Source: Clostridia bacterium (lineage in GTDB: Bacteria > Bacillota > Clostridia > RGIG6154). Taken from it: a stretch of DNA of 64,000 bases. The stretch lies in contig JAFQRW010000008.1 in NCBI GenBank assembly GCA_017409875.1, positions 181,390-245,389 of the forward strand, written 5' to 3'. Made by a program: the position numbers and the translations under genes. Below the pieces are notes generated by a model, which did no database searches, was not told the DNA's origin, and worked only from the letters and a program-made list of their open reading frames with translations. Numbering within the stretch: position 1 is the first letter of the stretch; each line of letters begins with the position of its first letter. Positions 2,630-51,906 of this stretch are shown piece by piece.

Positions 2630-3570
2630 AAAGTGATTTTATATATTCTTTAGACAACAAGAGGTATCACACACTTAATTATCATATATTACAAAAATTT
2701 GGCAGCAGAGTATTTAAGGCGGTAATAGATGCAGGTTTTACCTGTCCTAATATTGACGGTACTTTAGGCTTTGGAGGCTGCACATATTGCACTTCAGGTG
2801 CTGCAGAGTTTACAAATCCATCAGATGTCAGCGTAAGTGCACAGATTGAACTTGAAAAACAAAGGATTTATAAAAAGTGGGGTAGGGTTCCCGTTATTGC
2901 ATATTTTCAGGCTCACACCAATACCTATGCCGATTTAAGCAAACTTAAAAGACTTTATGAAGAGGCTCTTTCTGTCCAAGGCGTTGTGGGGTTAAGCATC
3001 GCAACAAGACCTGATTGTTTAGATGATGAAAAAATCAGTTATTTAAAAGAGTTATCTCAAAAAACGTACCTAACTGTAGAACTCGGACTTCAAACTGCGT
3101 TTGACGAAACAGCAAAAAAAATAAACAGGGGTTACCTGTTTGATGCCTTTGAACACACCTTTAATAAATTGAAACAAAATGGCATAAGAGTTTGTGTTCA
3201 CCTTATCAATGGGCTGATTGATGAAACGCCTCAAATGATGATACAAACTGCAAAAACACTTGGGAAAATGAAACCAGATGCAGTAAAAATTCACCTTCTT
3301 CATATTATGAAGGGTACTGTGTGCCAAAAAGAGTATGAAGACTTAAAGCTAATCCCAATGACAATAGAAGATTATATAAAAACGGTCTGTGAACAATTAA
3401 GATATTTACCACCCGAGTGTGTAATTGAAAGAATTACAGGCGACGGTTCAAAAGAAAACCTAATTGCACCTCGCTGGAGTACAAACAAAATAGCTGTCCT
3501 TGGCGGGATAGACAAATTTATGGAAGAAAACAACATTTATCAGGGAGATAAATGCCATACGATTGACTAA
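2626..3570 (+). CDS. radical SAM protein, TIGR01212 (YhcC-like) family
   Basis: CPNIDGTLGFGGCTYC cluster motif. The ATG at 2626 overlaps the upstream stop as ATGA. The ORF-track start at 2575 is probably too far upstream. Confidence 0.7.
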   Translation: MKSDFIYSLDNKRYHTLNYHILQKFGSRVFKAVIDAGFTCPNIDGTLGFGGCTYCTSGAAEFTNPSDVSVSAQIELEKQRIYKKWGRVPVIAYFQAHTNTYADLSKLKRLYEEALSVQGVVGLSIATRPDCLDDEKISYLKELSQKTYLTVELGLQTAFDETAKKINRGYLFDAFEHTFNKLKQNGIRVCVHLINGLIDETPQMMIQTAKTLGKMKPDAVKIHLLHIMKGTVCQKEYEDLKLIPMTIEDYIKTVCEQLRYLPPECVIERITGDGSKENLIAPRWSTNKIAVLGGIDKFMEENNIYQGDKCHTID

Positions 3571-3583
3571 ATGGAGGAATTAA

Positions 3584-6157
3584 ATGATTAATATTGATAT
3601 TGCTGTTGTGACTTATAATTCTCAAAAATGGATTGATTCGTTCTTAAATGCAATCAGAAATTCTAAATATGATTTAAAACGATTGCACTTATACTTTAAA
3701 GATAATGGTTCTTCAGATAGAACGGTTGAATTGTTGGAGAAATATGAATATAAAGCAGATTTTGATGAATACAAGGTAGTTTCAGAAAATAGCAATATAG
3801 GATTTGGGGCAGGAAGCAATCGCGCTGCACAAATGGGTAAAAGTCCATATATCTTGTTTTTAAATGTTGATACGGAAATTGAGGAAGATGCGTTTAAGGA
3901 ACTCAACAAGAAAGTTCAAATTTCAGATGAAAGCGTTGCAGTGTGGGAAATGCGTCAATTTCCTTATGAGCATCCTAAAATATATAGTCCGGTGACATTG
4001 GAAACATCATGGGTAAGTGGAGCATGTTTTTTATTACGCAGAGATATCTTTGATATTACAGGCGGGTTTGACGAATCTATTTTTATGTATGGTGAAGATG
4101 TGGAACTGTCATGGAGAATACGCTCTATGGGATATAAACTTATGTATGTCCCAGATAGTTGTGTATATCATTATGCATATGCTTCAGCAAATGAGATTAA
4201 ACCGGTACAGTATTATGGCTCACTTGAAGCAAATATTATGCTTAGGTGGAGATATGGAAATATTACACAAATAATAGCAGGATATAAATTTTTGCTTAAA
4301 GCATATTTCAAACCTGCACATTTTGCAGATGCAAAGAAAAATATTTTCCATATTATTATAAAATCTTTTAAAATGGGAGTTTCATTTAGAAACAAGTATG
4401 GGAAATTAAAAAATAATGTAGCAAAATTTTTAAGATATGACTATGAATATGCCAGAAATGGTGCATTTTATGAAAATGAAAGATTTGATAAAAACAATAC
4501 GCCTCTGGTGTCCGTAATAGTAAGAACTTGTGGCAGACCTTATGTTTTGGAGGAATGTCTTAAATCTATACGTAATCAAACATACAAGAATATAGAGGTG
4601 TGTATTGCTGAAGACGGATTACCAGTTTCAGAAGGTTTCATAAAAGATAGATTTCCTGATATGAACATCAAGTATGTTGCAACGATTGAAAAAAAAGGTA
4701 GAAGCAATGCAGGAAACAGAGCATTGGAAATGGCAACGGGAAAATATTTGAATTTTCTTGATGATGATGATGTGTTTTATTGCGATCATATTGAAACTAT
4801 GGTTAATGCAGCGTTGAAAAATCCTGATGAAAAAATGTTCTATTCAAAGTCGTTTGAAACACCAATAACGATTAAAACAAGGGAGCCATACGTGTATCAG
4901 CTTAAAGAATATTATGAAGTAAAGCGTGCAGAATATTCGTCGGCTACATTGATAATGAGTAATTTATTCCCAATACAAACTGTATTTTTTAAGCGAGAAG
5001 TGTATGAACAAAAAGGCGGATTTAGCACAAATTACGAATATCTTGAGGATTGGGATTTGTGGCTCAAGTATTCAGAAATTGCAGACTATATACTTGTTAA
5101 TAAAACAACATCGGAATATCGCGTGCCTGCAGTAAATAACATTGCTAAGGAAAGGGTTGTTTTACTCAAACAAAATGAGGAAACAATACGAAACAAGTAT
5201 TTTAAATTGAGTAAAAAAGCAGTAGAGTGTAAAAGTAAGATATATTTGACAAAATCCTTGATATATACAATTGATAGCGTGCAGGTTTATTCCAAAAGCA
5301 GTTTACAAGTAGTTGGATGGGCGATTGCAAGCAAGGAACTTAAAAATGCCGATGTTTTGGTGTGCATAACAAACAAAGACGGAAGTAAATTATACTTTAA
5401 CACTCACAGGTATAAAAGGATTGATGTAAATGAGGAATACCCACAAATAGATTGTAAAGATTGCGGCGTTTCTGCTTGGATTCCACTTGGAAAACATGGT
5501 GTTGATTGTATAAGGACAATAGAGTTTGTTTGCAAAAAAAACGATAAGTTTTACATAAATAGAAATTTTGCAATTCGGTTTTATAAATTTGAAAAAGCGC
5601 GCAAACTCATAGTAAAATTAAATAGAATTAAAAATATGTTTTCGGCAAATGCAAATCGAATTAACAAAAGGGAAGTGTCGGCGGCAACTGTTTTTGATGA
5701 GAATTACAACAAGGTGAAAAAACTTTACTCTCAAAAAAGTATTTATTCTCGCAGGATGCGATGTAATATAGATAAAGCAAAGATATATTGTGGTAATGTT
5801 TTGGTAGTTGTAGGGTGGTGTCTTCTTGAGGGGATTAAAAGTGAAGCAGTTACACCGATACTGAGAATTACTGATAAGAGGAAAAAAGTTCATTTAATTT
5901 ATTGTGAGAAGGAAATAAGAAAAGATGTAGTCAAGATATTTTTGGATAATAAGTATCTTAATAGTGGTTTTGTTATGGATATTGATCTTGATTTATATCG
6001 AATTAACAAGATAAAAAAAATAGAACTTTTAGCTGAATATAAAAAGAAGCTTTATATATGCTCAAAAAGTGAATATTCTTTTAGGCAAAGAATGAAGAAT
6101 TTTGTGGTTTCGGTATTGTACCATATTAATATGTTGCTTAATAATATTACTGTTTAG
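3584..6157 (+). CDS. large multidomain glycosyltransferase with two tandem GT2 (GT-A) domains and a C-terminal duplicated module
   Basis: 857 aa. First GT2 domain at the N-terminus (IDIAVVTYNSQKWI...DxD-like). Second GT2 from about aa 305 (LVSVIVRTCGRPYVLEECLKSIRNQTYKNIEVCIAEDG ... LDDDD). The C-terminal 350 aa contains two VVGW-containing repeats. Confidence 0.75.
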   Translation: MINIDIAVVTYNSQKWIDSFLNAIRNSKYDLKRLHLYFKDNGSSDRTVELLEKYEYKADFDEYKVVSENSNIGFGAGSNRAAQMGKSPYILFLNVDTEIEEDAFKELNKKVQISDESVAVWEMRQFPYEHPKIYSPVTLETSWVSGACFLLRRDIFDITGGFDESIFMYGEDVELSWRIRSMGYKLMYVPDSCVYHYAYASANEIKPVQYYGSLEANIMLRWRYGNITQIIAGYKFLLKAYFKPAHFADAKKNIFHIIIKSFKMGVSFRNKYGKLKNNVAKFLRYDYEYARNGAFYENERFDKNNTPLVSVIVRTCGRPYVLEECLKSIRNQTYKNIEVCIAEDGLPVSEGFIKDRFPDMNIKYVATIEKKGRSNAGNRALEMATGKYLNFLDDDDVFYCDHIETMVNAALKNPDEKMFYSKSFETPITIKTREPYVYQLKEYYEVKRAEYSSATLIMSNLFPIQTVFFKREVYEQKGGFSTNYEYLEDWDLWLKYSEIADYILVNKTTSEYRVPAVNNIAKERVVLLKQNEETIRNKYFKLSKKAVECKSKIYLTKSLIYTIDSVQVYSKSSLQVVGWAIASKELKNADVLVCITNKDGSKLYFNTHRYKRIDVNEEYPQIDCKDCGVSAWIPLGKHGVDCIRTIEFVCKKNDKFYINRNFAIRFYKFEKARKLIVKLNRIKNMFSANANRINKREVSAATVFDENYNKVKKLYSQKSIYSRRMRCNIDKAKIYCGNVLVVVGWCLLEGIKSEAVTPILRITDKRKKVHLIYCEKEIRKDVVKIFLDNKYLNSGFVMDIDLDLYRINKIKKIELLAEYKKKLYICSKSEYSFRQRMKNFVVSVLYHINMLLNNITV

Positions 6158-37182: not shown

Positions 37183-39063
37183 ATGAAAAAGTTTATATTG
37201 CTCTTACTAGCAGTGTTTGCATTTTTTGTGCAGCCAGTTTTTGCAGAGGTTATAACTACACACAGTACAGAGGGTTATGCAAGTTACCTTTATGTTGCAG
37301 GAAATCCGGATAATTACCCAATAGAATATTACGATGAAGATGAAAAAGCATATAAGGGTGTTATACCCGATTTGCTAAGTAAAATTTCTGAACATTCAGG
37401 ACTTGATTTTGTCTATATTAACGGAAATAAAAACGAAAGATATGAGATGGGCGAAAATCTTCAGGCGGATATCATTTCATCACTAGAGACAAATACTTCC
37501 TACGGCAAGGAGTATCTCGAACTGATTTCTTATGAAAATTACGGAAAAACCCAAAAAACAGGTCTTGTTTTTACAACACTTGCAGATGATAATATAATTA
37601 CCAAGATTAAAACTGCCTTAAACGAAATATCCCTTGATGAAAGAAATGGTATATACCTGTCCTATGCATCACAAACCTCAAAAACAAGCTATAAATGGAT
37701 AATAGGCACACTTTTGTTGTCCTTCATCCTTCTTGCTTTTGTTGTGTTTTTGTTTTTACATATCAAAAGAATGCGAAAAGAAAACGAAGTTGACAAAATG
37801 ACAGATGCAGAAACAGGAATGGGAAATCTGCAGTTTTTCAAATATCATTTCAGGCACACTATAGGGGACATTTCCAGAAATCTGTACCACATTGCATATA
37901 TTATCTTAGACAGTAGTTACCTCCGTTCCTATCATGGCGACAGTTCATTTGATGAGGTTTTAAAATACACAGCATCTGTTCTGTCAGAACACGCAGGTGA
38001 CAGAGAAATACCTGCGCGAATTACCGAAAACGGATTTGCCCTTGCGTATCAGTCTACAAATGACGAAGATGCAAAAAATAGACTCAAAGAAATTATGGAT
38101 AAACTTAACAGCTTTGAGGGCGTGAAGGATAAAAGCAACAAGCTTGTTTTCCACGCAGCAACCTATCATCTTGCACAGACAGACAGAAACTGTGAAATTT
38201 TGCTATTTAATCTGAGAAAGAACTGTAACGCTATTTTTGGAACCGATAACCAGATTATGTATTGTGACACCCATTCTATGAATTTGGTTCAGGAGGAAAA
38301 GAAAATTACAGAAAGCATTTTAAAGGGCTTTGAAAACAATGAATTTAAGATGTATATGCAGTTTATTGTTGATAACAAAACAAAAAACATTGTGTCAGCA
38401 GAAGCACTTTCAAGATGGGACAGTCATGAAAAAGGACTGATAGGTCCGGGTAAATATATAAAAAATATGGAAAATTCAGGGATGATTTCAAGACACGATT
38501 TTTATATGTTTGAGTGTGCTTGCCGCCAGCTTGAAAAATGGAAGGATACGAAATACGGCCACATCACGATTTCCTGCAACTTTACAAGAATAACTCTTTC
38601 TGAGGAAAACTTTATAGATAAGCTCAAGATGATTTCCGACGGATACAATTTTGATAAATCAAAAATAGCCATAGAAATTACTGAGGATGCTATCGAAAAG
38701 GACAGAGAAACTGCAACAAATAATGTTAGACTTTGTAAGGAGCTCGGCTTTAAAATTTACCTTGATGACTTGGGAAGTGGTTATACATCCCTTGCAAATT
38801 TATGTGATTATCCTATTGATGTAGTTAAGATTGACCGTGATATTCTGCTTAAAACCGAGTCAGAAAATGGCAAAAAATTATTTGCCGGAATCATAGCTCT
38901 TGCTCATAATATGGACATAAAAGTTATTTGCGAAGGCGTTGAAACAGAAATGCACAACGCACTTGTGTCGGAATCTGATTGCGATTTCGTTCAAGGATGG
39001 TATTACTCAAAAACACTTCCGTTGGAAGAATGTGAGTCGTTTATATCATCAAAATCTATTTAA
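37183..39063 (+). CDS. membrane c-di-GMP phosphodiesterase (periplasmic domain, TM, degenerate GGDEF, EAL)
   Basis: 626 aa. Signal peptide and TM at about aa 165-190. GGDEF-like domain lacking the GGDEF motif. EAL domain with EALSRW, DDLGSGYTS and EGVE motifs. Confidence 0.75.
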   Translation: MKKFILLLLAVFAFFVQPVFAEVITTHSTEGYASYLYVAGNPDNYPIEYYDEDEKAYKGVIPDLLSKISEHSGLDFVYINGNKNERYEMGENLQADIISSLETNTSYGKEYLELISYENYGKTQKTGLVFTTLADDNIITKIKTALNEISLDERNGIYLSYASQTSKTSYKWIIGTLLLSFILLAFVVFLFLHIKRMRKENEVDKMTDAETGMGNLQFFKYHFRHTIGDISRNLYHIAYIILDSSYLRSYHGDSSFDEVLKYTASVLSEHAGDREIPARITENGFALAYQSTNDEDAKNRLKEIMDKLNSFEGVKDKSNKLVFHAATYHLAQTDRNCEILLFNLRKNCNAIFGTDNQIMYCDTHSMNLVQEEKKITESILKGFENNEFKMYMQFIVDNKTKNIVSAEALSRWDSHEKGLIGPGKYIKNMENSGMISRHDFYMFECACRQLEKWKDTKYGHITISCNFTRITLSEENFIDKLKMISDGYNFDKSKIAIEITEDAIEKDRETATNNVRLCKELGFKIYLDDLGSGYTSLANLCDYPIDVVKIDRDILLKTESENGKKLFAGIIALAHNMDIKVICEGVETEMHNALVSESDCDFVQGWYYSKTLPLEECESFISSKSI

Positions 39064-39096
39064 CTTGCAGTTAAAAATTGTACTTATAAGAAAAAG

Positions 39097-39140
39097 GCAA
39101 TGAGCATAACCCGTGTGGGTTACGCTCATTGCTTTTTTGT
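39097..39140 (+). terminator. strong rho-independent terminator ending the operon
   Basis: GCAATGAGCATAACCC-gtgt-GGGTTACGCTCATTGC then TTTTTTG. Confidence 0.85.
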
Positions 39141-39167
39141 TTATGTCTTTGGTTTTTAAAGAACAGT

Positions 39168-39196
39168 TTGCAATTTTTGCATATTTATGATATAAT
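39168..39196 (+). promoter_or_regulatory. sigma-70-type promoter with about 210-nt leader before the HTH/sdaA gene
   Basis: TTGCAA, 17-nt spacer, TATAAT. Confidence 0.45.
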
Positions 39197-39404
39197 ATTT
39201 TGACGGGAAATCTAGTGTTCTCGCAGATTTTAAGGAAAAGTGTTAAAGGAAAACTATGTTCTCTTGATTTGACACCAGTAGAAAAATGATAGTCGCATCA
39301 ACCACAGATAGAGTTGATGTGGCGATAATATTTTAAAATGCCTTTATAGTTGGAAGTTTTTTAGTTATAATATTTAGTGAAATTTCTTATATGAGGTAGA
39401 GAAA

Positions 39405-40841
39405 ATGGATAGATTTAATTCGAATAAGCTTAAGCAGTTGAGAGAGGCAAATCGCATTACTCAAAAACAACTTGGAGATTTATTGGGAATAAGCGACAGA
39501 GCAGTTTCAAAATGGGAATCAGAATTGTCCAAACCCTCGGGGAAAAATCTTGTTTCTTTAGCAAAAATATTTAATGTGACAGTAGAAAGCTTTTTTGAAA
39601 ACTCAAGCATTATAAAAACTAAAAAAGAAAATACTATTGCTGGTATGGAATCGTTAACCGAACTGTATAAAATTGGAAGAGGACCGTCAAGCTCACATAC
39701 AATTGGTCCTGAAAAGGCGTGTTTGATTTTCAAAAGCAGAAATAAGGACGCAGATAGATTTAAGGCCATTTTATATGGTTCTCTTGCTAAAACAGGAAAA
39801 GGGCATTGTACAGATGAAGTAATACGGAAAACATTTTCTCCTTATGAATGCGAAGTCGAATTTAACTATATTTATGACGATATCCCACACCCGAATACAA
39901 TGGAACTTATTTCATATAAGAAAAATATCGAGCAAGATAGAATAAGAGTTTTTAGTATAGGCGGCGGTAGTATTGCATTTGAAAATGATGTTTATGAAAC
40001 TCCTGAAAGAATATATAAACTTGATAAATTTACTTCAATAGCAAGTTATTGTGAAGAAAAAAATATACGACTTTGGCAGTATGCTGTTGAAAATGAAGAC
40101 GAAGAATTTTCAGACTATATGCATAAAATATGGAATGCTATGAAAACGGCTATAAAAAGCGGATTAGTTGATACAGGAGAACTTCCAGGTGGATTAGGGA
40201 TTCAAAAGAAAGCAAAATCTCTATTTAATAATCAGCATGTTGACGAATCACCTGTTACAAAAGAAAATAGAATAGTTTGCTCCTATGCTTTCGCTGTCGG
40301 CGAACAAAATGCATCCGGAGAAAAAATTGTCACTGCTCCTACATGTGGTGCTGCAGGTATTGTGCCGGCGGTTTTATACTATCAGCAACAAAAGAATAAT
40401 TTTAGTGATGAAAGTATAGTTCGTTCGCTTATGACAGCAGGAATAATAGGGAATTTGATAAAGACTAACGCATCTATATCGGGAGCAGAATGTGGGTGTC
40501 AGGCGGAGGTTGGAAGTGCTTGCGCTATGGCTGCTGCTGCACTTGGAGAACTGTTTGAGCTTTCTATTGATAAGATTGAATATGCGGCAGAAATTGCTAT
40601 TGAGCATCATTTAGGTCTTACTTGTGATCCAATCTGCGGGTTGGTTCAAATTCCGTGTATTGAACGAAACGCTGTTGCTGCGATGAGAGCAATAAATGCT
40701 GTTAATTTAGCAAGCTTTTTATGGAATACAAGAAAAATTTCGTTAGATAAAGTTATTCAAACCATGAAAGAAACAGGTTATGATATGCATAAATCATATA
40801 AAGAAACTTCCGAGGCGGGGCTTGCTAAAATTCATATATGA
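39405..40841 (+). CDS. sdaA: XRE-family HTH domain fused in frame to Fe-S-dependent L-serine dehydratase (single-chain beta+alpha)
   Basis: Residues 1-70 form a Cro/C1 HTH (ITQKQLGDLLGISDRAVSKWE). From MESLTELYKIGRGPSSSHTIGPEKA onward it matches the L-serine dehydratase beta then alpha domains. No stop codon lies between them. Confidence 0.7.
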   Translation: MDRFNSNKLKQLREANRITQKQLGDLLGISDRAVSKWESELSKPSGKNLVSLAKIFNVTVESFFENSSIIKTKKENTIAGMESLTELYKIGRGPSSSHTIGPEKACLIFKSRNKDADRFKAILYGSLAKTGKGHCTDEVIRKTFSPYECEVEFNYIYDDIPHPNTMELISYKKNIEQDRIRVFSIGGGSIAFENDVYETPERIYKLDKFTSIASYCEEKNIRLWQYAVENEDEEFSDYMHKIWNAMKTAIKSGLVDTGELPGGLGIQKKAKSLFNNQHVDESPVTKENRIVCSYAFAVGEQNASGEKIVTAPTCGAAGIVPAVLYYQQQKNNFSDESIVRSLMTAGIIGNLIKTNASISGAECGCQAEVGSACAMAAAALGELFELSIDKIEYAAEIAIEHHLGLTCDPICGLVQIPCIERNAVAAMRAINAVNLASFLWNTRKISLDKVIQTMKETGYDMHKSYKETSEAGLAKIHI

Positions 40842-49516: not shown

Positions 49517-50683
49517 TTATTTGATAATTCTTACACGGATTACGCCATCAATAGAAGAAATGCTATCTGCTGCTTCTTCGTGTTCTTCTGATAAATCAAG
49601 AATTGTGTACGCATAGTCACCTTTGCTTTTATTAATCATATTGTCAACATTAACTGCCGATACAGCGTTTGTAATCTGGCTGATCATTGTTGGAACATTT
49701 TTGTGCATAACACAAATTCTCATCACACCTTCTCTCGGAGCACTGCAGTTAGGGAAGTTTACAGAGTTAGAAATGTTACCGTTTTCAAGGTAATCTCTGA
49801 TTTCTCTTGCAGCCATAACTGCGCAGTTATCTTCTGATTCTTCTGTTGAAGCGCCAAGGTGGGGGATGCAAACAATGTTTTTAACATCGATTAAGTCAGC
49901 ACTTGGGAAGTCTGTTACATATCTTGCTACTTTACCGCTTTCAAGACCTGCAATTAAAGCTTCGTTATTAACAAGCTCGTTTCTTGAGAAGTTAAGAATT
50001 CTTACGCCGTCTTTGCAAAGTGCAAGAGTTTCGTTATTGATTGTATATTTTGTGCTTGGATTAAGCGGCACATGGATTGTAATATAATCGCACTGAGCGA
50101 AAATATCATTGATGTTATTAACATGAATAATTGAACGTGATAATCCCCATGCAGCATCAACTGAAATATACGGGTCATAACCAAAAACCTGCATACCGAG
50201 ACTGTGAGCAGCGTTGGCAACCATAACACCTATAGCACCAAGACCGATAACACCGATTTTTTTGCCTGCAATTTCATGACCTGCAAACTGACCTTTTCCT
50301 TTTTCTACAAGTTTAGCGGCAGCATCGCCTTCGTTTTTTAAAGTTGAAGTCCATTTTACGCCTTCTGTAATATCTCTTGATGCAAGGAAAAGACCGCATA
50401 TAACAAGCTCTTTAACAGCATTTGCATTAGCGCCCGGAGTGTTGAATACAACAATGCCTTCTTCGGCACATCTTTCAACAGGGATGTTGTTGGTTCCTGC
50501 ACCTGCTCTTGCGATTGCTTTTAAATTATCACCAAACTGCATATCGTGCATTGCAGCGCTTCTTACTAAAATACCGTCGGGATTTTGAACATTGTCAGAA
50601 ACATTGTAATTTGTGCCAAGCTTGTCAAGCCCGATTTTTGCAATTTTATTTAAAGTTAAAATATCATACATTTTCAAATTCAC
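49517..50683 (-). CDS. serA: D-3-phosphoglycerate dehydrogenase (2-hydroxyacid dehydrogenase with C-terminal ACT domain)
   Basis: NAD-binding GLGAIG, catalytic R/E/H pattern, C-terminal ACT. Adjacent to serC. Confidence 0.8.
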   Translation of the reverse strand: MNLKMYDILTLNKIAKIGLDKLGTNYNVSDNVQNPDGILVRSAAMHDMQFGDNLKAIARAGAGTNNIPVERCAEEGIVVFNTPGANANAVKELVICGLFLASRDITEGVKWTSTLKNEGDAAAKLVEKGKGQFAGHEIAGKKIGVIGLGAIGVMVANAAHSLGMQVFGYDPYISVDAAWGLSRSIIHVNNINDIFAQCDYITIHVPLNPSTKYTINNETLALCKDGVRILNFSRNELVNNEALIAGLESGKVARYVTDFPSADLIDVKNIVCIPHLGASTEESEDNCAVMAAREIRDYLENGNISNSVNFPNCSAPREGVMRICVMHKNVPTMISQITNAVSAVNVDNMINKSKGDYAYTILDLSEEHEEAADSISSIDGVIRVRIIK

Positions 50684-50689
50684 CTCAAA

Positions 50690-51772
50690 TTATTTGTTGT
50701 CAGCTTCAAACTTCTTCATAAAGTCAACAAGAGCAACAACGCCTTCTGTTGGCATTGCGTTATAAATGCTTGCTCTCATACCGCCTACACTTCTGTGACC
50801 TTTAAGGTTTACAAAGCCGTTAGCTGTTGCTTCTTTGATAAATTTAGCGTTAAGCTCATCATCACCTGTTATGAAAGGAACGTTCATAAGTGAACGGTCT
50901 TCTTTTACAACAGTTCCTTTAAACATTGAAGACTCATCTAAAAAGTCATAAAGAATTTTAGCTTTTTCAATGTTAATCTGTTCCATCTTTTCAAGACCGC
51001 CAAGCTCTTTTAAGTATTTGAACACAAGACCGCAAACATAAATGCCATAGCAAGGAGGTGTGTTGTAAAGAGAATCGTTGTCGGCGTGGATTTGATACTT
51101 AAGCATTGTAGGAGTAATATCCATAGCATTGCCAATTAAATCGTCTCTGATGATAGCGATAGTAACGCCTGCAGGACCTACGTTTTTCTGAGCACCTGCA
51201 TAAATAAGACCGTATTTTTTAACATCAACAGGTTCAGATAAAATGCAAGATGACATATCTGTTACCAATGGAACATTTCCTGTGTCGGGAACTGTATGAT
51301 ATTTGGTGCCATAGATAGTGTTGTTTGTAGTTGTATGAACATAGTCAGCTTCGGGGTCAAACATACTCTTGTCAAGTTTTGGTATATAGTTAAATATTTT
51401 ATCTTCGCTTGAAGCAACTTTTCTTGCCTGACCGTAAAGGTTAGCTTCTGAAAAAGCTTTTTTTGACCACTGACCTGTGATTACATAGTCAGCCTTTTTG
51501 TTTTTTGTCATAAGGTTTAAAGGTACCATTGCAAACTGTGTTGAGGCACCGCCCTGTAAAAACAACACTTTGTAGTTATCAGGAATATTCATTAAGTCTC
51601 TTAAATCCTGTTCAGCAGTTTTTATGATTTCGTCATAAACTTTGGATCGATGACTCATTTCCATAACGCTCTGACCGGAGTCCTCATAATTGAGCATTTG
51701 CTCTGCGGCGATTTTTAATACTTTTTCAGGCAACATTGAGGGGCCTGCTGAAAAATTGTACACTCTTTCCAT
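50690..51772 (-). CDS. serC: 3-phosphoserine / phosphohydroxythreonine aminotransferase
   Basis: MERVYNFSAGPSMLPEKVL N-terminus diagnostic of SerC. 360 aa. Confidence 0.9.
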   Translation of the reverse strand: MERVYNFSAGPSMLPEKVLKIAAEQMLNYEDSGQSVMEMSHRSKVYDEIIKTAEQDLRDLMNIPDNYKVLFLQGGASTQFAMVPLNLMTKNKKADYVITGQWSKKAFSEANLYGQARKVASSEDKIFNYIPKLDKSMFDPEADYVHTTTNNTIYGTKYHTVPDTGNVPLVTDMSSCILSEPVDVKKYGLIYAGAQKNVGPAGVTIAIIRDDLIGNAMDITPTMLKYQIHADNDSLYNTPPCYGIYVCGLVFKYLKELGGLEKMEQINIEKAKILYDFLDESSMFKGTVVKEDRSLMNVPFITGDDELNAKFIKEATANGFVNLKGHRSVGGMRASIYNAMPTEGVVALVDFMKKFEADNK

Positions 51773-51828: not shown

Positions 51829-51857
51829 ATTATACACCCGATTTCTCGACAAGTCAA
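51829..51857 (-). promoter_or_regulatory. sigma-70-type promoter for serC-serA-apt
   Basis: Minus strand reads TTGACT, 17-nt spacer, TATAAT. About 55 nt upstream of the serC start. Confidence 0.5.
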
Positions 51858-51906
51858 CCATCGGTAGAAATTAAATTTTATTTAATAACTCTACTGCCGG
51901 TAGAGT

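Follow-up and report, generated by a model that had tools for sequence, protein, structure and literature searches.

To our knowledge, few enzymes double as transcription factors, and each of them is instructive about how metabolism feeds back on gene expression. NadR, the enterobacterial NAD regulator, combines an N-terminal Cro/C1-type helix-turn-helix (HTH) domain with enzyme domains of the pathway (NMN adenylyltransferase and ribosylnicotinamide kinase) and represses the genes of its regulon, those of NAD synthesis and salvage, via palindromic operators. The proline utilization flavoenzyme PutA carries a ribbon-helix-helix domain and switches by membrane binding; we know of no control of biosynthetic genes by PutA in addition. 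In BirA, an active ligase and a DNA-binding domain share one chain that regulates genes of the same pathway. An active kinase takes the place of the ligase in RbkR, which likewise regulates same-pathway genes (PMC5397151). BzdR comprises an N-terminal XRE-type HTH domain, a linker, and a shikimate-kinase-like domain that has lost catalysis and serves for effector binding only; it is the stated model for enzymes recruiting DNA-binding domains (PMC3602430). Here, we analyze an open reading frame (ORF) in a stretch of 64,000 nucleotides from Clostridia bacterium (assembly GCA_017409875.1, contig JAFQRW010000008.1, positions 181,390 to 245,389; hereafter the window) in which an HTH domain of the Cro/C1 (XRE) type is fused in frame to a single-chain Fe-S L-serine dehydratase.

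The fusion protein resembles NadR in that a Cro/C1-type HTH domain is joined to an enzyme of the regulated pathway, here a candidate one; NadR contains no Fe-S dehydratase and has no homology to the fusion protein outside the HTH domain. PutA differs in both parts, with a ribbon-helix-helix instead of a Cro/C1 HTH domain and a flavoenzyme instead of an Fe-S dehydratase. RbkR and BirA have winged-helix DNA-binding domains, other enzyme folds, and another effector logic, in which the reaction product acts as co-repressor. The closest architectural analogue is BzdR with its succession of XRE HTH domain, linker, and enzyme-derived domain, but the enzyme domain of BzdR is catalytically dead, whereas the fusion protein has intact catalytic motifs, and lineages that lost the HTH domain still keep the enzyme. 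Membership in the BzdR subfamily was rejected: the C-terminal part of the fusion protein consists of SDH_beta and SDH_alpha, and the two proteins are analogous in design only. The design is that of a trigger enzyme of the NadR, PutA, BirA, and RbkR kind. No specific description of an HTH–dehydratase fusion was found in the searchable literature, an Fe-S L-serine dehydratase acting as a transcription factor is undescribed in the literature searched, and public annotation names such proteins plainly "L-serine ammonia-lyase".

A conserved HTH–dehydratase fusion protein

The ORF is as described in the initial annotation (Table 1), and both domains named there were recovered by profile searches. 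It is preceded by a GAGGT Shine–Dalgarno sequence at 39393-39397, 7 nt 5' of the ATG, and its product (P0001, 100% identity) carries the NCBI name "MAG: L-serine ammonia-lyase [Clostridia bacterium]" (MAG, metagenome-assembled genome). The protein contains both peptides quoted in the initial annotation, QKQLGDLLGISDRAVSKWE and MESLTELYKIGRGPSSSHTIGP. Pfam profiles assigned HTH_3 (PF01381) to amino acids 9-61 (E = 5e-14, 52.4 bits versus a gathering score of 23), SDH_beta to amino acids 83-140 (covering profile positions 1-64 of 155 only), and a complete SDH_alpha to amino acids 220-474 (E = 3e-78). With the NCBIfam equivalog model of single-chain L-serine ammonia-lyases (TIGR00720, sda_mono), the protein scored 395.3 bits versus a curated cutoff of 345.1.

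An AlphaFold2 model (mean predicted local distance difference test score, pLDDT, of 77.6) showed a confident five-helix N-terminal domain, a disordered linker at amino acids 67-78, and the dehydratase body. The N-terminal helices (amino acids 6-15, 20-27, 31-38, 46-56, and 60-63; pLDDT 83-92) form the five-helix fold of lambda-repressor-like proteins. Foldseek matched this part to the DNA-bound P22 c2 repressor–operator complex and to SinR, with target-normalized template modeling (TM) scores of 0.83-0.89 and root mean square deviations of 1.2-2.5 Å; C.AhdI and similar proteins also matched, with target-normalized TM scores of 0.8-0.9 overall. Among 55 family members, the recognition helix SDRAVSKWE (amino acids 30-38) is invariant or nearly so; the protein from locus L014 carries the exchange A33T (SDRTVSKWE).

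The enzyme part shows full-length homology to the type-2 single-chain Fe-S L-serine dehydratases of Legionella pneumophila (PDB 4RQO) and Escherichia coli (SdaA), both of which are without a DNA-binding domain. It is collinear with 4RQO (E = 1e-79, 38% identity, Foldseek TM scores of 0.69/0.74) and shares with it the beta-then-alpha domain order, the GPSSSH motif, and three aligned cysteines. C365, C407, and C418 correspond to residues 361, 403, and 414 of the 4RQO chain, which we take to be the ligands of the Fe-S cluster (native C343, C385, and C396). These cysteines, GPSSSH (G93-H98), and GKGH (G133-H134) are all invariant in the 55 family members. The motif equivalent to the dehydratase N terminus stands at the N terminus of the Legionella enzyme, and Met81 of the fusion protein is the position at which non-fused homologues begin.

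The beta domain is about 38 residues shorter than that of 4RQO (chain positions 86-125 are missing), and the protein ends with ...GLAKIHI, without the C-terminal cysteine that is reportedly an intrinsic inhibitor of the Legionella enzyme, according to the 4RQO study. The non-fused 408-amino acid dehydratase P0268, collinear with and 59% identical to the enzyme part of the fusion, has the same short beta domain; hence, this is a subfamily trait that predates the fusion and was not produced by it. To judge from these alignments, the enzyme part belongs to a short-beta-domain subfamily of single-chain Fe-S L-serine dehydratases lacking the C-terminal cysteine; it is very likely active, with the HTH domain as an added module. 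Intact catalytic motifs and a predicted DNA-binding-type domain in one polypeptide make up the architecture of a trigger enzyme.

The orthologue search suggested in the initial annotation recovered the same fusion widely. The architecture HTH_3 + SDH_beta + SDH_alpha was present in 116 of the best 120 clusters at 90% identity (70-100% identity). A scan of GTDB with one genome per species returned 25 loci (L001-L025), all from uncultured Clostridia MAGs, most of whose isolate names point to yak, sheep, or goat gut; the labels include Oscillospiraceae, Acutalibacteraceae, Ruminococcus, and Ornithomonoglobus. An intact fusion ORF with 64-88% identity to the window protein was found in 21 of these loci, two others are cut by contig ends, and the remaining two have lost the HTH domain. 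About 14-17 representatives of a 50%-identity library span the HTH domain and the dehydratase N terminus, and the fusion family therefore forms one modest clade.

Ratios of nonsynonymous to synonymous substitution rates (dN/dS, Nei–Gojobori) were 0.05-0.17 for the HTH domain, 0.6-2 for the linker, and 0.04-0.07 for the enzyme; the mean pairwise identity of the linker is 19%. The constraint on the HTH domain nearly equals that on the enzyme, both domains are under strong purifying selection, and the linker evolves neutrally. The HTH domain was deleted independently three times with different boundaries, in L008 (3989-5293), in L013 (3965-5209)/P0103, and in protein P0095. All three deletions are in frame, keep the original start codon together with the first 7-11 codons, and retain the entire enzyme, as expected if translation begins at the upstream ATG. 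No obvious Shine–Dalgarno sequence precedes the internal Met81. Translation of the fusion from the upstream ATG and its conservation across a clade of uncultured gut Clostridia are thus shown, and we are almost certain that the fusion is real and functional.

Control region of the fusion gene

One upstream layout is found in the window and about 18-19 species despite unrelated gene neighborhoods. A 15-bp palindrome, TCAACY-NNN-RGTTGA, is followed by a near-invariant element termed box B, by TATAAT 17 bp on, and by the Shine–Dalgarno sequence and start codon about 25-35 nt later. From start to start, palindrome and box B lie 43-45 bp apart, 44-45 bp in all but one case (18 species loci and the window). 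Box B is exact in the window and 15 loci and has one or two mismatches in five further loci. Essentially no synteny is conserved around the fusion gene in the 25 loci: the neighbors differ in almost every species, and only a MATE pump, an M20 peptidase, and Na+/solute symporters recur, each in 2-4 loci. Thus, the control region travels with the fusion gene.

Across 19 aligned sites, no covariation occurs in any of the six core pairs of the palindrome; each pair is invariant or broken without compensation, and the third position is unpaired in 7 of the 19. The palindrome therefore behaves like a protein operator and not like an RNA stem. With the tolerant third position included, the conserved motif reads TCnACY-N3-RGTnGA.

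The palindrome of the window is centered at about -73 from the inferred transcription start, and its right half is degenerate; a better right half-site, AGTTGA, is present at 39312-39317. The initial annotation had described a hairpin, CATCAAC...GTTGATG, at about 39300-39330, in a long leader transcribed from a promoter about 210 nt upstream of the gene. The inverted repeat exists, at 39296-39302 and 39313-39319 and hence slightly to the left, and consists of the palindrome plus the extra AGTTGA half-site. The distal promoter-like site exists as well, but it is the proximal promoter that is conserved in the relatives (Table 1). Since this promoter lies downstream of the repeat, the latter is best read as a DNA operator, and the hairpin is probably the palindrome 5' of the conserved promoter and so not part of a leader.

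The window and its closest relatives (L001, L002, and L008) share a perfect AGTTGR half-site 5 bp past the degenerate right half, which amounts to an alternative 8-bp spacing; tethered HTH domains may tolerate such variable half-site spacing. Box B was also considered as a second full palindrome and rejected, as only its AGTTGR half matches.

Candidate sites upstream of serC-serA

A position weight matrix (PWM) was built from the palindromes upstream of the dehydratase gene (sdaA) and scanned on the window and the loci. Within the 205 kb of loci L001-L025, matches of at least 14 bits comprised the training sites only. The window contained just two strong matches besides the site of the fusion gene, where shuffled windows give 0.06 matches of at least 17 bits, and both are located in the 134-bp intergenic region upstream of serC-serA. 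The proximal site, centered at about -39, overlaps the -35 hexamer TTGACT of the serC promoter, and the distal site is centered at about -75, 36 bp further upstream. Like the sdaA sites, both depart from the consensus at the tolerant position and so conform to TCnACY-N3-RGTnGA. The serC product scored 530 bits with TIGR01364 (cutoff 444); the serA-like gene has phosphoglycerate dehydrogenase as best match, at a score below the cutoff of that model. The order in this minus-strand operon is serC, serA-like gene, apt.

Table 1. Features of the fusion gene, its control region, and the serC-serA region (window positions).
Feature	Position	Strand	Basis or remarks
HTH/L-serine dehydratase fusion ORF, complete	39405..40841	+	478 aa plus stop, ATG start, uninterrupted
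Cro/C1 (XRE) HTH domain, aa 1-66	39405..39602	+	HTH_3 profile, structure model, dN/dS
Flexible linker, 14 aa, aa 67-80	39603..39644	+	pLDDT <50 for aa 67-78; fast evolution
Single-chain Fe-S L-serine dehydratase, beta then alpha domain, aa 81-478	39645..40838	+	TIGR00720, 4RQO alignment
Candidate operator, own promoter: TCAACC-ACA-GATAGA, 15 bp	39298..39312		Conserved spacing, PWM
Box B, CTTTATAGTTG	39342..39352	+	Near-invariant; contains weak -35 TTTATA and half-site-like AGTTG
Conserved proximal promoter TTTATA-17-TATAAT	39343..39371	+	TATAAT at 39366-39371; inferred transcription start ~39378
Distal promoter-like site TTGCAA-17-TATAAT	39168..39196	+	10/12 matches; not conserved in relatives
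Candidate operator, serC promoter, proximal: TCTACC-GAT-GGTTGA (- strand)	51854..51868		PWM 19.6 bits
Candidate operator, serC promoter, distal: TCTACC-GGC-AGTAGA (- strand)	51890..51904		PWM 17.5 bits
serC promoter TTGACT-17-TATAAT	51829..51857	-	11/12 consensus matches
serC and serA-like phosphoglycerate dehydrogenase gene, candidate regulated operon	49517..51772	-	serC 51772..50690, serA-like 50683..49517

Several further matches and readings were rejected. Weak matches at 3090, 10619, and 57706 of the window (9.7-11.4 bits) were dismissed, as all of them lie inside coding sequence. A match of about 17 bits in relatives (L026 20792-20806; L044, L047 4477-4491) is a false positive in the coding sequence of monogalactosyldiacylglycerol (MGDG) synthase, where it encodes PTGGG; the false-positive rate of the PWM is about one independent match per 600 kb scanned. 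The distal serC palindrome was considered as a terminator of ogg and rejected because of its 3-nt loop, the lack of a U-run on the ogg strand, and the lack of a replacement in relatives without the palindrome.

The link to serC was assessed in relatives. The serC locus L029 shares its MAG assembly (CAZBJD01) with the fusion locus L015; there, both palindromes are retained in unchanged positions but differ in their variable bases (distal 21.2 bits, proximal 18.1 bits). The core serC promoter is conserved in L026, L029, L030, and L049. In L026/L044 and L030/L045, which are syntenic and whose SerC is 93% identical, the core promoter is kept and the palindromes are absent. In the five relatives anchored on Sua5 (L044-L048, two of which end before serC), the slot upstream of the MGDG-synthase gene lacks the fusion in all five. 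Anchoring a metagenome scan on the MGDG-synthase gene yielded 10 distant or short loci, none of them with the fusion; the P0272 locus contains inserted genes, so that the stretch ended short of the slot. Where assessable, the fusion and the serC sites are both present or both absent (two lineages versus two, from partial genomes).

The slot upstream of the MGDG-synthase gene is variable. Relatives carry there glycogen phosphorylase and GH77 genes, an EF-G-like gene, or a GH123 gene (L044 2080-4453, L045 1773-4441, L046 2711-4443, L048 2733-4444); in the window (about 37183-40841), it contains a GGDEF-EAL gene and the fusion gene instead, and the fusion module looks like a lineage-specific insertion. 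The GGDEF-EAL gene (37183-39063, plus strand) lies directly upstream of the fusion gene and has a strong terminator hairpin of its own at 39088-39141. Its 626-amino acid product combines a signal peptide or transmembrane segment with a periplasmic solute-binding domain (SBP_bac_3), a GGDEF domain of degenerate appearance, and a strong EAL domain, and looks like an amino-acid-sensing cyclic di-GMP phosphodiesterase encoded beside an amino-acid catabolic regulator. In L026 (6711-6905), L029 (1386-1598), L030 (6264-6458), and L044 (18378-18572), a standalone HTH_3 gene of 64-70 codons is found a few kb from serC. Its product is about 35% identical to the fusion HTH domain over 57 amino acids, and its presence is uncorrelated with that of the serC palindromes.

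Proposed regulation, alternatives, and significance

As the best reading, and a fairly probable one, we propose that the fusion protein is a bifunctional trigger enzyme, with autoregulation of the fusion gene and, in this lineage, repression of serine synthesis. The trigger-enzyme-like autoregulator of the initial annotation thereby gains support from the palindrome that accompanies the gene in about 19 species, and from its recurrence at serC-serA; binding by the fusion protein is the step that we infer. Going by sequence, the fusion protein probably binds the palindrome, and whether serC-serA is a true target appears evenly balanced.

Through two tethered HTH domains, the dehydratase oligomer would contact the 15-bp palindrome TCnACY-N3-RGTnGA. 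Autoregulation would be conferred by the site at about -73 of the fusion gene promoter, which keeps a constant spacing to the invariant box with its weak -35 hexamer; the geometry would fit activation, or cooperative repression with box B. At the serC-serA promoter, sites at about -39, over a near-consensus -35 hexamer, and at about -75 would confer repression of serine biosynthesis. In a single DNA-binding state, most simply the serine-replete one, serine synthesis would be off and the protein's own catabolic gene sustained or activated. Serine or the Fe-S cluster state might be the effector, as might some other signal. Repression of serCA and activation of sdaA when serine is plentiful is the only scheme with a coherent physiology under a single DNA-binding state. 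DNA binding, effector, and sign of regulation are in this scheme what we infer.

A number of observations weigh against the proposed regulation. The site of the fusion gene in the window, with 14.9 bits and a degenerate right half, is the weakest of the set. In L014 (about 800-1193) and L025 (about 3600-4001), the HTH domain is present and the palindrome absent; the upstream region of L014 is entirely different, and of the control elements, L025 retains just box B and the promoter. L008 has lost the HTH domain, yet kept palindrome, box B, and promoter. The HTH domain is linked to the palindrome by co-occurrence. An XRE-like domain on an enzyme does not necessarily bind DNA, and HppE is among the structural matches. 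The serCA link is thin: it comes from the window genome and one relative, L029, whose MAG could be chimeric. In L044 and L045, it is for the syntenic slot upstream of the MGDG-synthase gene, one part of the genome, that neither the fusion gene nor a remnant was found. The serC sites are absent from four other serC lineages, L049-52 (SerC 95% identical) and the more distant L027, L028, and L033, which do not enter the comparison of two lineages versus two. Finally, the four bases on each side of the palindrome (alignment columns 8-11 and 27-30; window plus 18 loci) show complementarity in about 55-60% of cases, above shuffled and slid controls, and vary in sequence (CAC/GTG, AAGG/CCTT, AATA/TATT, AAAA/TTTT). 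Such dyad-symmetric flank covariation goes beyond the prediction of a plain operator model, and some contribution of a hairpin or cruciform is conceivable.

The most probable alternative, though in our view an unlikely one, is that the HTH domain is functional without binding the palindrome, serving as a protein–protein or oligomerization module (as in RodZ or HppE) or binding other DNA, and that a separate serine regulator binds palindrome and box B. This would account for L014, L025, and L008, it agrees with the HppE match and with a link established by co-occurrence, and the standalone 64-amino acid HTH_3 protein encoded near serC in relatives also speaks for it. That gene, however, is present in genomes with serC sites (L029) and in genomes without them (L044, L045). 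Moreover, the palindrome stays with the fusion gene although the genomic surroundings, about 19 in number, are unrelated, the invariant recognition helix matches an invariant half-site core, and in L013 the loss of the HTH domain went along with that of the whole control region, palindrome, box B, and promoter included. Cro/CI operators generally consist of two 6-bp half-sites with a 3-bp spacer, a format that the palindrome fits.

Alternatively, the protein could be a serine-sensing transcription factor whose dehydratase domain is a non-catalytic effector-binding domain. BzdR provides the precedent (PMC3602430), and the shortened beta domain and missing C-terminal cysteine would agree with it. 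We consider this improbable: the catalytic and cluster-binding motifs are all invariant at a dN/dS of about 0.05, the TIGR00720 score exceeds the curated cutoff, and the short beta domain also occurs in the non-fused P0268. In addition, lineages with a deleted HTH domain keep the full enzyme, which indicates that the enzyme is selected in its own right.

Slightly more improbable still is transcription from the distal promoter-like site into a long regulatory 5' leader, in which the repeat would fold into an RNA hairpin and serve as attenuator or as the target of an RNA-binding factor. The 10 of 12 matches of that promoter-like site, the folding of the hypothetical 208-nt window leader, which is modestly better than that of shuffled versions (z = -2.54), and the compensatory, dyad-preserving changes in the palindrome flanks speak for it. 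The long structured leader of the initial annotation is nevertheless not supported, and several observations speak against it. The conserved promoter is at a fixed spacing downstream of the repeat, 7 of 19 species have an uncompensated mismatch at the central stem position, and covariation is absent from the other core pairs. An Rfam scan of 38900-39700 at E values up to 10 gave chance miRNA-type matches on the terminator hairpin of the upstream gene and none in the leader, and no conserved terminator or U-run was found 3' of the palindrome. In the serC control region, a copy of the motif overlaps the promoter's -35 hexamer, which places it outside any transcript leader.

An artefact, be it the joining of two genes through faulty sequencing or assembly or through a recent stop-codon loss, or a product initiated only at Met81, would fit the alignment of Met81 with the start of non-fused homologues and the two cluster representatives that begin at MESL (P0069 and P0119, which may be cut gene calls), but both possibilities, raised in the initial annotation, are effectively refuted and of negligible probability in view of the same open frame in more than 100 independent clusters and 21 species loci, the purifying selection on the HTH domain (dN/dS about 0.1), the in-frame deletions that retain the upstream start, and the lack of an obvious Shine–Dalgarno sequence at Met81.

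Returning to the bifunctional trigger enzyme, we tentatively put forward a more specific version of it. An oxygen-labile [4Fe-4S] dehydratase might act as a dual-mode transcription factor that, with one operator type and in a serine-bound and/or holo-cluster form, represses serC-serA and activates its own gene; its HTH domain would be modular, with one gain and at least three in-frame losses. If this is true, the serine-consuming enzyme would itself be the serine sensor of the cell, and possibly an Fe-S or redox sensor too.

The locus provides a testable system with a 15-bp candidate operator, a promoter layout conserved in about 19 species, and a candidate second target in serC-serA, for which the natural HTH-deletion variants are usable as controls. 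If serC-serA is indeed a target, the logic would be simple, namely to repress synthesis and tune catabolism. We know of no characterized serine regulator in the ruminant-gut Clostridia, and the findings suggest how serine homeostasis may be regulated in these abundant uncultured bacteria.

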